Source: a virus
Length of the DNA: 64,000 nucleotides
IMG/VR virus record: IMGVR_UViG_3300044641_001047
Coordinates: 12,497 to 76,496 of that record
Reading direction: 5' to 3' (one strand)
In this document: positions 56,096-63,562 of the stretch, in pieces
How positions within the stretch are numbered: the first letter of the stretch is position 1
Layout: each line of letters begins with the position of its first letter
Translations under genes and position numbers: made by a program
The notes under the pieces: generated by a model
Told to the model about the DNA's origin: nothing
Seen by the model: the letters and a program-made list of their open reading frames with translations, nothing else
Database searches by the model: none

Positions 56096-58477
56096 TTATG
56101 ATGAGAATGTACAGGTTCCACCAGCCCCACCCGCACTACCAGCTGTAGTTGTCGGTATAGCTGGGATAGCCCCTGAGTTACCTGTTCCGTTTACTTGAGT
56201 AATTGTATTATTTCCTAAGCATATAGCGGTTATTCTTCCACCACTTCCACCTTGTCCTCCTTGCCCACCAGTACCAGTTCCAAGACCATTACCTCCGTTA
56301 CCACCTGTTCCTCCGTTAGCTGAAACAAAAGTAAACGATCCCCCTGTTATAGTTCCATAAACAAGATAGACGTATCCACCTCCTCCAGCTCCTGCACCAC
56401 CAGATCCAGCTGTATTGTTAAATGTAACAGAAAATCCAGAACCACCATTTCCACCTCTTGATGCAATAGCATTTGAAGCTGTACTTGCCCCAACTATAAT
56501 GTTTCTTGCATAAACAATAGTGTTTCCACCTCCACCGCCTCCGGCTCCTCCTCCCCCACCACTAGCAACTGCTGACGAACCTCCCCCGCCACCACCACCA
56601 CCGTGTCTTCCTCCTACGGCATTTGTTGTAGTCGGTGTACCTAATGTATTCTGTGTAGTTCTAGATAAAAATGCAAGACTTTGTACAAATGTCCTAACAA
56701 CAAAAGTACCTGCTGCAATTGCTTGTCCAGCTCCTCCCACAGCTCCTGTACCAATAGCGCTATCTCCCCCTTCTCCTCCTGATCCCCCAGCTCCTCCTGT
56801 TACTGGAGATGTAGCTTGTGCAGTTTGAATACCTGCTGCGGCATTGTTTAAATTAGCCTGTGCCCCATTTCCTCCATTACCTCCTCTGTAGAGCAGGTTA
56901 CTTCCACTACCTCCTGAATAATATCCTGAAGTAGTTACTCCATATCCGCCTCTTCCAAAAGTCCCCGGACTTCCATTAGATGCTCCTGTAGCACCAGTTG
57001 AAGAAGCCCCCACATACCCATTATTAGATATTGCATTAGACCCTGCATTAGATAAATCTAAAGTACCATTTACAAATAGTCTATAACCAGCAAGGTCTAT
57101 AGCTCCTGCACCACTAATGGTAAGGTCGGTGTAGTATGTATCTTCAGTTAAACTTATTGCTCCTGTAATAGTACCAGCTCCATTTGATCCATCCCCAAAT
57201 ACACTTATCTGTGATAATGCTGTTTGGTTAGCTGGGGTATAGCCAAGTATAGTTGAGATACTCTTAGGCTTCCATAAGTCAGGAGTTGTACTAGTATCAA
57301 AAACAAGTACGTCGTTATTTACAGGGGCAGTAGATACTAAGTCTACATTGTGTATTTCGTCTAGCTCATACCCATTCTGTGGTTTGATATAGATCTGACC
57401 ATTCCCTGCGTTTGCCCTCTCTACAATCCCGATATATACTAAGTGGTTTGGGGCATAAGGCTTTATCTTTGTCAGTGTCCCAGCTGTTGCCCCTAAGTAC
57501 AACTGATCCCCAGGGTTATAAGCTGCTGTGTTTACCCCTGAGATAACTCCTTGAGTAATTATAAATCCTCTTTGGTTTGGGGCAATTGATGTAGAGAACA
57601 CAACCCCAACTGTTTGTGCTGATGTAGCATCTGATGAGTTATTGGCTAGCTTAACACTCATCCTATTCCCAGCTGCCCCAAAGGCATACACAGGTTGTCC
57701 CTTGTTTATCGTAACTGAGTCATCGTTAGTTACATAAGCAAAGAGTTGGTTAGGGGCTACCCCAAGAGTTTGGAAGTTAGTCCCATCATAGATGATAATC
57801 AAATCTTGCCCCGATACGATATCTCCCCCAGTAAGCTGAACATTAAACTCTTTAACTAGGGTTTTAACCCCCAACCCATTGATGTTGATATCAGAGTCTG
57901 CATCATTCCCGTTAGTAAACTTGATGATGTAAGCATCCCCATCTGTGTAACTAGTTACTCCTGAGATAGTTACAGTATAGTTATTGGTTCCAGAGGCAAC
58001 TCCATAAGGCATTCCACCACTAGTTCCAGTAGCGTTAATAGTAAAGTTAGGGTAAGTCCCAGTTACATTTATCCCCGTTCCGTTGTTTAAAACGACAGTT
58101 TGGTCTGGGGCTGTGTTGGTTACAGTGAATGTTCCCGACGTGGTTATAGGCCCAGCAGGAGATACTGATATACCTGTTCCCCCATCTACATCTATAGAGG
58201 ATACCCCACCCCCACCTCCTCCTGTAGCAGCAATGGTTAATATCCCTGAGTTATTAGTGATAGTAACCCCACTCCCAGCTACAATAAGATCAGTTAGGTA
58301 CTTAAATCTAAATGCATCTCTACGTAGTTTGTTAGTATAAGATGTAAGGACTTGGTTAGGATAGATGTTATCTGTCCTTTTGTAATACAGCTCATTAGTT
58401 GTATCTACATCAAGAAGCTGCTTAAGGCTAATATCAACCTTAACTATCTTACTTTGTTTATAAAACGGGGATTGCAT
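56096..58477 (-). CDS. Tail fibre / receptor-binding protein with glycine-rich C-terminal domain
   Basis: 793 aa; AGSGVTIT, TNTAPDQTVVL and GQIYIKPQNGYELDEIHNV motifs; poly-Gly repeats. Confidence 0.8.
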   Translation of the reverse strand: MQSPFYKQSKIVKVDISLKQLLDVDTTNELYYKRTDNIYPNQVLTSYTNKLRRDAFRFKYLTDLIVAGSGVTITNNSGILTIAATGGGGGGVSSIDVDGGTGISVSPAGPITTSGTFTVTNTAPDQTVVLNNGTGINVTGTYPNFTINATGTSGGMPYGVASGTNNYTVTISGVTSYTDGDAYIIKFTNGNDADSDININGLGVKTLVKEFNVQLTGGDIVSGQDLIIIYDGTNFQTLGVAPNQLFAYVTNDDSVTINKGQPVYAFGAAGNRMSVKLANNSSDATSAQTVGVVFSTSIAPNQRGFIITQGVISGVNTAAYNPGDQLYLGATAGTLTKIKPYAPNHLVYIGIVERANAGNGQIYIKPQNGYELDEIHNVDLVSTAPVNNDVLVFDTSTTPDLWKPKSISTILGYTPANQTALSQISVFGDGSNGAGTITGAISLTEDTYYTDLTISGAGAIDLAGYRLFVNGTLDLSNAGSNAISNNGYVGASSTGATGASNGSPGTFGRGGYGVTTSGYYSGGSGSNLLYRGGNGGNGAQANLNNAAAGIQTAQATSPVTGGAGGSGGEGGDSAIGTGAVGGAGQAIAAGTFVVRTFVQSLAFLSRTTQNTLGTPTTTNAVGGRHGGGGGGGGSSAVASGGGGGAGGGGGGNTIVYARNIIVGASTASNAIASRGGNGGSGFSVTFNNTAGSGGAGAGGGGYVYLVYGTITGGSFTFVSANGGTGGNGGNGLGTGTGGQGGQGGSGGRITAICLGNNTITQVNGTGNSGAIPAIPTTTAGSAGGAGGTCTFSS

Positions 58478-58484
58478 TCTATTA

Positions 58485-58715
58485 CTAGTTCTTCTTAACT
58501 TGAGCTTGTATTCTAAGGTGTGTCTTTTCTTGTTCTGCAGCCATTATCCCCATAATCCCCCTGAGTTCTTCGTAGCTAAATTGGCATACAAACTTCTCAT
58601 CCTCATCTAGGAACTGCACAACTTTATCGTCTATGTACACTAGCATATAAGTTAGAGACTCATCCCCTTCGGTAAACGGAGGTTGGTACATCCCTGCTTT
58701 AATGTTAGTTGCCAT
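58485..58715 (-). CDS. Hypothetical protein
   Basis: Start revised to MATNIKAG (58715); preceded by promoter-like TACCTTTA at 58731-58738. Confidence 0.6.
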   Translation of the reverse strand: MATNIKAGMYQPPFTEGDESLTYMLVYIDDKVVQFLDEDEKFVCQFSYEELRGIMGIMAAEQEKTHLRIQAQVKKN

Positions 58716-58789
58716 TTCTGAAAATTTAGATAAAGGTAAGGATAATTTCCCAAATGGGCACACCTATCCCCTTAGAGATTTTTTTGTTT

Positions 58790-59012
58790 AAAATTGATTT
58801 TCAGTTCTGCCGTCTTTAGCCTTCGGTGGGACATTTCTTTCAGCCTATAGTCTTGATCCACCCCAGAACCTTATGTCAATTCCATTTCAGCAACTATCGG
58901 GGACAACTTTCATACTCTATGTAGTTGAGAATGAGTATGATAGAACCCAACGTCTGACCCCTTACTTACCTTCGGCCCTCAGGGGTGATCATCCAAAGTG
59001 GATGGTTGCTAT
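58790..59012 (-). ncRNA. Candidate structured ncRNA (~220 nt), class unknown
   Basis: Starts just after TACATTTG (59016-59023); at least seven complementary stems; G-U pairs favour the minus strand; no >=60-aa ORF on the transcribed strand. Confidence 0.55.
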
Positions 59013-59028
59013 CTGCAAATGTAACAAA

Positions 59029-59169
59029 TTAACCTTGCCCTCTAGAAACTTTTTTGTAAAGTTTTGAACTTTTTAGTTTTGAGAACTTCTTCTTAGAATG
59101 CACCTCTGGTCTCTTTCTTCTAGGGTTTGGACTGAATGAATTCGACGTACCTGCTTTAATCTTAGACAT
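59029..59169 (-). CDS. Small very basic protein (46 aa, ends RGQG)
   Basis: MSKIKAGTSNSFSPNPRRKRPEVHSKKKFSKLKSSKLYKKVSRGQG*; TAACTTTG promoter at 59201-59208. Confidence 0.7.
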   Translation of the reverse strand: MSKIKAGTSNSFSPNPRRKRPEVHSKKKFSKLKSSKLYKKVSRGQG

Positions 59170-59200
59170 TTTACTAGTTTGTTTCGTTTCTTATTTATCC

Positions 59201-59239
59201 CAAAGTTAGTATAAAATGGAATTGGATTTAGTATCTTCG
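59201..59239. promoter_or_regulatory. Divergent sigma70-type promoter pair
   Basis: TAACTTTG on minus (59201-59208) and variant TATCTTCG on plus (59232-59239). Confidence 0.5.
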
Positions 59240-59272
59240 TACCTTAATTTAAATTTTAAAATCTTAAATCAC

Positions 59273-59593
59273 ATGTTTCCAATTTCATCAACCAACGAAG
59301 AGAAAGTTCTCGTATCTATTAACCCAACAACTGCTGCTGGTAATCCTGCAACTGTTGACGGAGTTCCAACCTGGACTGTTGTGTCTGGTGACTGCACTGT
59401 TGAGCCTGCTGCTGACGGTCTTTCTGCCTACATCGTTTCAGGTCAACCTAACGTAGCTAACTTGATTGAAGTTTCAGCTGATGCTGATCTTGATGCTGAG
59501 GAAGTTCGTACTATTACTGAGACTATCGTTTACACAGTAGTAGCTGCTGAAGCTCAAGCTCTCGGAATTGTATCTGCTGTTGAACCTAAGTAA
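59273..59593 (+). CDS. Ig-like domain protein
   Basis: Start revised to MFPISS; beta-rich VDGVPTWTVVSG...VEPAADGLSA. Confidence 0.6.
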   Translation: MFPISSTNEEKVLVSINPTTAAGNPATVDGVPTWTVVSGDCTVEPAADGLSAYIVSGQPNVANLIEVSADADLDAEEVRTITETIVYTVVAAEAQALGIVSAVEPK

Positions 59594-62385: not shown

Positions 62386-62754
62386 ATGAAGACACTTACC
62401 TACATCAAGAGAGTTGAGATAGAAGAAACAATACCGTTTCCTATCATCACATTTGTTGCTGAGAAAGTGCGAGTTTGTACAGGAGATAGCTCATGGTTTG
62501 ACATGGGCTATACTCCTAGACTCGATGGTCTAACACTACATCAGTATCGTAAACTTCATAATGCTTGGGATAGAGATATCGAGAAAGCCTTAGAAGAATA
62601 TGTAAAGACTACATATAATCTAAGTAGTGGATGGGGTTATATAGATCACCATGTTTATTCAGCTAAACAACTTGGGATGCCTGACCTCCCCAAAGTTGAT
62701 CCAAAGTTTAACGATGATCATGCTGATCTAGTTAGAATGTTTAAAGGGGCTTAG
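62386..62754 (+). CDS. Hypothetical protein
   Basis: Start revised to MKTLTYIK, immediately after the upstream stop. Confidence 0.6.
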   Translation: MKTLTYIKRVEIEETIPFPIITFVAEKVRVCTGDSSWFDMGYTPRLDGLTLHQYRKLHNAWDRDIEKALEEYVKTTYNLSSGWGYIDHHVYSAKQLGMPDLPKVDPKFNDDHADLVRMFKGA

Positions 62755-62763
62755 TCCCCTTTT
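62743..62763 (+). terminator. Terminator-like hairpin overlapping ribozyme P1
   Basis: AAAGGGG-CTTAGT-CCCCTTTT. Confidence 0.55.
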
Positions 62764-62820
62764 ACTAATGCAGCCAGGTAACACTGAAGGTCACAAGCCC
62801 TTTAATGCAGAGTGGTAAAA
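62760..62820 (+). ncRNA. Twister self-cleaving ribozyme, type P1
   Basis: P1 TTTTAC/GTAAAA; U|AA site (62766/62767); P2 TGCA/TGCA; GC; P3 CAG/CTG; P4 AAGG/CCTT with loop TCACAAGC; GA then GTG pairing with CAC (T1); GC/GC (T2). Confidence 0.88.
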
Positions 62821-62860
62821 CAATTTATTCATTTAATTTATTATTTAAATCATCAAAATC

Positions 62861-63479: not shown

Positions 63480-63562
63480 AATCAGGTAGCTCAACTGGTA
63501 GAGCATAACGAGTTTTGTACTATTCTCGTTAAGGTGTGGGTTCGAATCCCACCCTGATTTCA
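63480..63562 (+). tRNA. tRNA-like RNA with enlarged, non-canonical anticodon arm (isotype undetermined)
   Basis: Acceptor AATCAGG/CCTGATT; D-arm GCTC-AACTGGTA-GAGC; T-arm GTGGG-TTCGAAT-CCCAC; anticodon arm 26 nt (7-bp stem, 12-nt loop). Confidence 0.7.

Follow-up and report, generated by a model that had tools for sequence, protein, structure and literature searches.

On the evidence of comparison among relatives, the minus strand of the window analyzed here, a stretch of 64 kb, encodes a genuine, conserved, and structured RNA of 258 nt (58756..59013). This RNA constitutes a new, uncatalogued family at a biologically important position, whose function might tentatively be placed in the control of the genes that follow. 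The element comprises a first domain (helices P1 to P5), a second domain (P6 to P9), a pseudoknot, and a 3' tail. An earlier note, made from the letters of the window, had proposed at this site a promoter-driven and highly structured late noncoding RNA of ~220 nt belonging to no known class; of which description the presence of a structured RNA stood and the extent did not, the element being longer and reaching ~58756 with its pseudoknot and tail, and the term "late" applies to the RNA by position only. The covarying pseudoknot, the test of the link with the neighboring peptide gene, the tail's closeness to the start codon of the endolysin, and the variant in a chromosomal island are new in the present analysis.

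The window is the right-hand part of a 76.5-kb virus record that is ~92% complete, and the source virus is a freshwater crAss-like phage, whose large terminase is ~43% identical to those of the gut Crassvirales. The minus strand carries the portal, the terminase, and several giant ORFs; the RNA tops this 59-kb virion block, and the plus-strand genes start at ~59273, on its right. The order on the minus strand after the gene for a 46-aa peptide (59029-59169) is the RNA, a 76-aa ORF (MATNIKAG...; 58485..58715), to which no Pfam family matched, and a 793-aa Gly-rich, tail-fibre-like ORF (56096-58477). In this genome, and likewise in that of the relative L167, the RNA is the head of a long co-directional virion block, just past a divergent switch region. 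Elsewhere in the window, a scan against Rfam at the gathering score returned as its sole match a tRNA (63480-63560; 57 bits), and gave neither a twister nor any other ribozyme at 62743-62860, for which site a twister had been proposed.

Covariation, fold, and promoter of the RNA

Folding energy alone was not significant, the minus strand having a z of -1.59, with 13 of 200 shuffles as good, and the plus strand a z of -0.06. Anchoring the search on the 76-aa ORF and on the terminase, we fetched 158 IMG/VR loci, among which nhmmer revealed a gene-free stretch of ~250 nt that was conserved upstream of the 76-aa ORF homologues. From 30 copies RNAalifold derived a structure of 38 pairs, and compensatory changes were seen in 24 of these. 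In a plain MAFFT alignment of 63 homologues, which result was independent of any fitting to the structure, 90.2% of the cells of the hand-drawn structure held standard pairs, and 35 of the 48 pairs had undergone double changes; when the 3' partners were slid by 1-3 columns, those figures were 34-50% and 14-18 pairs, and the covariation score was 0.05-0.11, as opposed to 0.459. Upon shuffling, the observed value was reached in none of 500 trials for three of the four covariation measures and in 2 of 500 for the further pair types. The covariance-model alignment of 80 copies (68 distinct), which alignment is itself fitted to the structure, gave 94.2% of cells paired and double changes in 40 of the 50 pairs, versus 36-50% and 11-17 pairs in its slid controls. 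Such a collection of homologues with a test of covariation had been recommended in the earlier note, whose claim of a highly structured RNA was borne out well above the slid and shuffled controls.

The G-U pairs of P3 and P4 would be A-C mismatches on the other strand, and for that reason we assign the RNA to the minus strand, as had been maintained before. Certain columns of high mutual information (e.g., alignment columns 69/201/222/290) were left out of the pairs, since they track the split of the two main clades. Nucleotide identity to the relatives is 75% in the RNA versus 64-68% in the DNA of the peptide gene and the 76-aa ORF, for the same pairs; and a covariance model of 247 positions and 47 pairs (R1) found one copy in the 76.5-kb genome, with 241 bits and an E value of 5e-66. 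A 276-nt contig from a riverine metatranscriptome, belonging to a relative, covers the equivalent of 58751-58987, and other runs hold fragments; contigs of this kind give no ends, strand, or level, and may stem from carried-over DNA.

All eight helices named in the earlier note are present, at the coordinates given there, and are supported by covariation. In what follows, position n of the RNA corresponds to window coordinate 59014 - n, and every feature lies on the minus strand. In domain 1 the helices P1, P2, P3, and P4 meet at a four-way junction. P1 (TAGCAAC/GTTGCTG; 59005-59010 with 58889-58894, span 58889..59010) closes the domain, and five of its six pairs are compensated, one of them occurring as AU 30, CG 24, GC 6, and UA 5 times. 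The hairpin P2 (CATCCA/TGGATG; 58999-59004 with 58990-58995, span 58990..59004) has a loop that is variable in sequence and length, and all four of its modelled pairs covary (in one instance GC 38, AU 18, UA 9). P3 (ACCCCT/AGGGGT; 58981-58986 with 58957-58962, span 58957..58986), which encloses a small variable hairpin, is paired in 99% of cells, and five of its six pairs covary, with counts such as AU 34 / GC 30 and CG 34 / GC 27. P4 (GTTGGG/CCCGAT; 58946-58951 with 58896-58901, span 58896..58951) is 100% paired, one pair being distributed as CG 41, UA 19, and UG 6 and two others alternating between G-U and A-U; this helix encloses P5 (TCATACTC/GAGTATGA; 58933-58939 with 58911-58917), whose five modelled pairs all covary despite a variable length and whose loop ends in a conserved ACAUAG. 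The junction GUUGUCCCC is invariant except for the covarying bases of the pseudoknot.

Domain 2 (58792..58881), likewise delineated by covariation, is a long hairpin in which P6 (AATTGA/TCAATT; 58876-58881 / 58792-58797), P7 (GTTCTG/CAGAAC; 58864-58870 / 58803-58809), and P8 (GGTGG/CCACC; 58858-58862 / 58825-58829) covary in six of six, five of five, and three of five pairs, respectively. To these we add P9 (58850-58852 / 58830-58832), with covariation at all three pairs. The 17-nt terminal loop UAUAGGCUGAAAGAAAU (58833-58849) and the 15-nt junction GAAGGCUAAAGACGG (58810-58824) are both near-invariant, and the domain contains a conserved internal loop with UAUAA opposite GAAAU.

A scan for mutual information revealed, in addition, a 3-bp pseudoknot, which is new relative to the earlier note, between the GUU at 58905-58907 (nt 107-109), which precedes an invariant GUCCCC, and the AAC at 58786-58788 (nt 226-228), directly 3' of P6 (span 58786..58907). 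Among 66 distinct sequences, 100% of the pairs are standard and two of the three covary (UA 49 / CG 17; UA 63 / AU 3); moreover, the UA/CG split runs inside the clade in which an endolysin gene follows the RNA and not along the main clade division. By this pseudoknot the two domains are joined in a single fold. Pairings between the P5 and P9 loops and between the P9 loop and the P8-P7 junction were rejected, there being no compensating changes; for the former, AUAG in the P5 loop and CUAU in the P9 loop, a candidate for a covarying loop-loop contact of the pRNA type, were uncompensated in L020 (CUAAGG) and L054.

The 3' tail (58756..58785) consists of an A-rich linker, an invariant AAGGGG (58768-58773), and a UGUG/AYC (UGURYC) motif, and is conserved in all clades, including the variant in a chromosomal island. 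Between its invariant GGGGA and the likewise invariant UCCCC of P4 a pairing could form, on which covariation is silent, neither strand ever varying. We considered the tail as a Shine-Dalgarno sequence with a conserved start and discarded that idea, no start codon being kept at any position after AAGGGG. A likeness of P2-P3 to the 3' end of the 16S rRNA was also dropped, the endolysin clade being devoid of the AUCACCCC string. The fold as a whole comprises 10 covarying helices, the pseudoknot, and many invariant unpaired bases (GUUGUCCCC, CUAUAGGCUGAAAGAAAUG, GAAGGCUAAAGACGGC).

Ahead of P1 by 5-8 nt lies the -7 box TACATTTG (59016..59023, minus strand), of the Bacteroidota TAnnTTTG type. This motif is exact in 53 of 62 homologues and has one mismatch in the other nine, and its distance to P1 is fixed whether the upstream DNA is coding or not; a TTG or TTTG-like element at -33 is seen in many of those copies, though not in all. 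By itself the motif is not enriched in the window, with 79 matches against 66 expected. The arrangement, as far as can be judged from the letters, is that of a Bacteroidota sigma-A promoter, with TAnnTTTG at a fixed distance from a transcription start that we would locate at ~59010-59014, a few bases past the box; and the proposal that the RNA is promoter-driven gains by this conservation.

Distribution and genomic neighbors

A degenerate 28-nt pattern from domain 2 occurred in at least 85 IMG/VR stretches and, among the matches listed, in at least 120 metagenome contigs, TARA samples included; the RNA is present in at least 200 contigs of uncultured aquatic phages, both marine and freshwater. 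The same pattern, run over one genome each of 185,579 prokaryote species, yielded only two contigs, both metagenome-assembled. The absence from catalogued classes that had been claimed for the RNA was upheld: no family of Rfam 15 (4227 models) matched it when the whole window was scanned at the gathering score, and at E values of up to 10 the copy of the window and three others (L064, L103, L251) obtained chance-level scores of 10-22 bits, versus thresholds of 38-80. Nor was there any match to GenBank phages by blastn with three members of the family, and R1, with E values of up to 10 allowed, had no hit in the complete genomes of phi14:2, crAss001, and cr52_1; a literature search, by topic and by conserved sequence strings in full text, found nothing on the RNA.

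The application of R1 to 151 Bacteroidia genomes and to 58 genomes of one Bacteroidia family returned sporadic copies in mobile elements only, among them a divergent form of the RNA (22-63 bits) in five of those 58 (L254, L335-L338). This form keeps domain 1, the pseudoknot, P6, and the AAGGGG...UGUAUC tail, and differs in the inner part of domain 2; P3 contains insertions, with the helix kept. In one genome (G106; L254, C3:27000-46000) it marks one end of an ~8-kb island, inserted at the 3' end of glmS with sodA on the other side, and heads a co-directional gene block, the island encoding two serine recombinases and an excisionase-like protein. In another (G186) it directly follows an altered 3' end of glmS, the last codons of which are replaced at the junction. 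The existence of the island form implies that the family is one of Bacteroidota mobile elements and not strictly of phages.

The RNA is co-oriented with the next gene in every case, and the nature of that gene differs among the clades. In ~26 distinct copies, those of the clade of the window, the RNA is followed by the 76-aa ORF and the tail-fibre gene, with a 33-aa ORF between the RNA and the 76-aa ORF in one sub-clade (L150, L153, L156, L158, L169). In ~27 distinct copies an Amidase_2 endolysin follows, whose ATG lies 1-5 nt past the tail motif and 13-16 nt after the GGGGG; and that gap leaves no space for a separate promoter, so that in this clade the RNA must necessarily be the 5' UTR of the endolysin mRNA. 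The remaining followers are a DUF5675 protein (three copies), a Cpn10 (one), and large proteins (six, one of which matches a phage depolymerase domain). The 76-aa ORF, for its part, is kept in 78 IMG/VR loci, and of 16 more distant phages that were read, at least 15 have it immediately behind a gene showing metallophosphoesterase-like GHEY...GHFHR motifs, in place of the RNA.

In the clade of the window, 40 nt separate the end of the tail from the ATG, and this interval holds another -7-like box, 15-25 nt ahead of the ATG. This box, which is TATCTTTG in relatives of the L103 clade, reads TACCTTTA here (58731-58738, minus strand; 15 nt before the ATG) and differs from TAnnTTTG by one base, in agreement with the promoter-like box that had been attributed to the next gene. 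Its presence suggests a very short-leadered transcript in tandem with the promoter of the RNA. Six copies of the endolysin clade are intra-operon, located 4 nt after a thioredoxin-like ORF, and five of those six have the off-by-one -7 box TATATTCG. In L160, L165, L176, L177, and L213 the RNA, with the box TATATTCG, is preceded by an OmpA-like 347-aa ORF, by the gene for a membrane protein of 94 aa, and by that for a thioredoxin-like lipoprotein; L194, a similar intra-operon copy, retains TATATTTG.

From 58300 to 59400 the minus strand contains nothing that resembles a terminator, and in 16 representatives no conserved hairpin with a U-tract lies downstream of the RNA, the folds of the tail being inconsistent across clades. 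The RNA had been described as discrete, which description gained no support, since no terminator follows and the copies of the endolysin clade form the 5' leader of an mRNA.

Upstream, the 46-aa Lys/Arg-rich peptide gene (59029..59169, minus strand), with a box of its own, TAACTTTG, at 59201-59208, proved to be, as had been claimed, a real coding gene: its invariant residues are encoded by up to five synonymous codons, and third-position changes numbered 4520, versus ~1900-1980. Ten residues are invariant in 24 diverse homologues, the consensus being R-P-G-[VI]-H-x-K-x-K-x-S-x-x-K-x-S-K-x-Y-x-K-x-x-x-G-Q-G and the motif ending in GQG[RK]. A profile search assembled a family of 295 clusters at 50% identity, nearly all of ~42-50 aa and without domain fusions, for which the Pfam, NCBIfam, PHROG, and PDB profiles and the ESM Atlas offered no annotation; a likeness of the N-terminus to the eukaryotic eL29 was dropped, Pfam having given no match.

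Among 141 RNA-bearing loci, 100 have the peptide gene upstream on the same strand, usually ending within 6 nt of the promoter region of the RNA; the window and its duplicate locus L245, whose peptide the search pattern missed, carry it as well, and in most of the remaining loci the flank is too short to tell. Certain RNA-bearing phages have their peptide gene at a distance of 0.3-4 kb from the RNA, or even on its downstream side, and no such gene was found in the 19 kb around the island variant. The reverse association fails: R1 had a match within 3 kb in one of 80 further peptide loci, a match already known, and of the 69 loci in which the peptide ORF was placed, 68 had no RNA within that distance. 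In those loci the next ORF usually begins less than 60 nt after the peptide gene, mostly leaving no gap. These loci (L255-L334) include many phage contigs of 50-166 kb, and varied genes usually follow the peptide gene at once, among them those for a chaperonin-like protein of 515 aa and a MDIRKISVGPDYK protein of 74 aa. From the failure of the reverse association, we consider the peptide to be a widespread one that often opens the late block, and not a dedicated partner of the RNA.

Possible roles of the RNA

The RNA is promoter-proximal, co-oriented with the next gene, not followed by a terminator, continuous with the start of the endolysin gene, and at the head of a late block or an island operon, from which properties we tentatively propose that it acts in cis as a 5' leader gating the late or lysis genes, though with a confidence that falls somewhat short of even. 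In such a mechanism, the host RNA polymerase would start a few bases past the TAnnTTTG box, yielding a transcript that folds into the four-way-junction domain (P1-P5) and the long hairpin domain (P6-P9), tied by the 3-bp pseudoknot, whose 3' strand runs straight into the A-rich linker and the AAGGGG tail. The formation or not of this compact fold, perhaps through a phage or host protein or a small molecule, might then determine the read-through or the translation of the downstream genes. The intra-operon copies with an off-consensus box fit a role on the following gene better than an independent gene. The diversity of the genes downstream, which differ by clade in a manner unusual for a gene-specific regulator, speaks against a leader of that type, and would be better accommodated by a control of timing or of polymerase processivity than by a gene-specific operator. 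Also to be weighed against a leader is the number of invariant unpaired bases, more typical of ribozymes or ribonucleoproteins; and in the clade of the window, the next gene may not need the promoter of the RNA, since the second -7-like box precedes its ATG. We found no covarying alternative pairing that might constitute an expression platform, and a simple masking of the start codon is not evident, because only weak folding (-5 to -7 kcal/mol) is computed around the start of the endolysin mRNA.

The main rival to the leader is a stand-alone, trans-acting noncoding RNA, which may be processed from the late transcript and might serve a structural purpose, act as a catalytic cofactor, or manipulate the host; its standing would resemble that of other large RNAs carried by phages whose function has yet to be assigned. 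Such an RNA would account for the consensus promoter that begins right at P1, the compact pseudoknotted fold with its many invariant unpaired bases, the variety of the genes downstream together with the promoter-like box of the next gene in this clade, and the occurrence in a nonphage integrative island; the missing terminator and a tail that abuts the endolysin ATG in ~27 relatives nevertheless render this interpretation less likely than a leader. More doubtful still is that the RNA represents a new class, a large pseudoknotted RNA specific to Bacteroidota mobile elements, both crAss-like phages and small integrative islands, and working at the head of the late or lysis genes in the manner of a sensor or a ribozyme, where it may time lysis through a phage- or host-derived signal or modify the RNA polymerase or the ribosomes for the late operon. 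The dedicated ribonucleoprotein that the earlier note had suggested, composed of the RNA and the adjacent peptide, we judge improbable; for, although the peptide is strongly basic, conserved, and encoded next to the RNA in most of the loci, strict co-occurrence fails in the other peptide loci, in the phages with a distant or downstream peptide gene, and in the island variant, while the adjacency is equally explained by the location of both at the start of the late block.

Slightly less credit still can be given to a ribozyme, e.g., one by which the transcript would cleave or process itself, thereby defining where the late or lysis mRNA begins. A catalytic RNA would agree with the size, with the pseudoknot, and with the invariant unpaired GUUGUCCCC, CUAUAGGCUGAAAGAAAUG, and GAAGGCUAAAGACGGC, and processing would make sense for the intra-operon copies; against which considerations no Rfam ribozyme model matched any of the four divergent members at E up to 10. 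The flanking ORFs, moreover, are complete, and the downstream Amidase_2 matches its Pfam profile from residue 2, so that the RNA is not an intron; group I and group II introns were in fact rejected, no intron model having matched and the upstream ORFs ending in stops. That the site is no RNA at all, being a signal in the DNA (a pac site or an origin) or the plus-strand 64-aa ORF, whose conservation had been named as grounds for abandoning the RNA, we regard as extremely improbable. The opposite strand does have fairly long stop-free runs, with a median of 60 aa; yet of 514 indel runs 405 have a length not divisible by three, the ATG of that ORF is ATA in most relatives (the CAU of J6/7 becoming UAU in the RNA), the G-U pairs and G-U intermediates function on the minus strand only, and what the covariation preserves is pairing, not sequence.

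Significance and comparison with known systems

Few phages on Earth are as abundant as the Crassvirales, and to our knowledge there is no account of how they turn on their late and lysis genes with the host polymerase. The RNA is widespread, strongly constrained, and located exactly at the late/lysis switch, touching the endolysin start codon in many relatives, and its architecture is defined enough for direct experiments; the relative at the head of the glmS-linked island hints that mobile elements of the Bacteroidota may use this device more generally. If the RNA were a sensor, a ribozyme, or a modifier of the polymerase or the ribosome, it would be a new RNA class, with a mechanism that has no described counterpart in the Bacteroidota; and even if it were merely a stabilizing leader, it would still be of use for recognizing and annotating phages of this lineage.

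Among known RNAs, GOLLD (RF01998) and ROOL (RF03087) are similarly complex, covarying RNAs of phages and mobile elements that came from comparative genomics and whose function is undefined; but those measure ~580-800 nt, versus ~250 here, and belong to tRNA clusters, whereas the present RNA, for which Rfam gave no match at either the gathering score or E values of up to 10, goes together with a promoter and with the beginning of the next gene. The pRNA of phi29 (RF00044) is also a structured RNA encoded by a phage, on a scale of 120-174 nt, though again no Rfam match was found and nothing links the present RNA to the portal or the terminase. With riboswitches and translational operators it shares, in the endolysin clade, a conserved aptamer-like fold directly upstream of a start codon, with the 3' strand of the pseudoknot adjoining the linker to the start region; unlike riboswitches, it does not precede bacterial metabolic genes, as judged by the pattern scan of the 185,579 species and the search of the Bacteroidia with R1. 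The put sites of phage HK022 (~70 nt, two stem-loops) and the EAR element of the Bacillus eps operons (~120 nt, an Rfam family) are much smaller, and the EAR model gave no match; like the RNA described here, both are promoter-proximal structured RNAs that precede very long co-directional operons of mobile elements, and a likeness to antitermination of this type would fit a role that is independent of the identity of the next gene.

Finally, in the late leader of the lambdoid phages the PR' promoter is followed by a "6S" RNA of ~194 nt and the terminator tR', which is read through under the action of Q. The leader of lambda ends in an intrinsic terminator and is itself no conserved complex fold, whereas here there is a complex fold and no terminator; in both systems, however, a promoter of the host consensus stands directly before the genes of lysis or of the virion, with a leader of ~200 nt transcribed first, and that promoter and leader are found at the head of the late block in the present genome and in L167 or, in ~27 relatives, immediately ahead of the Amidase_2 endolysin.
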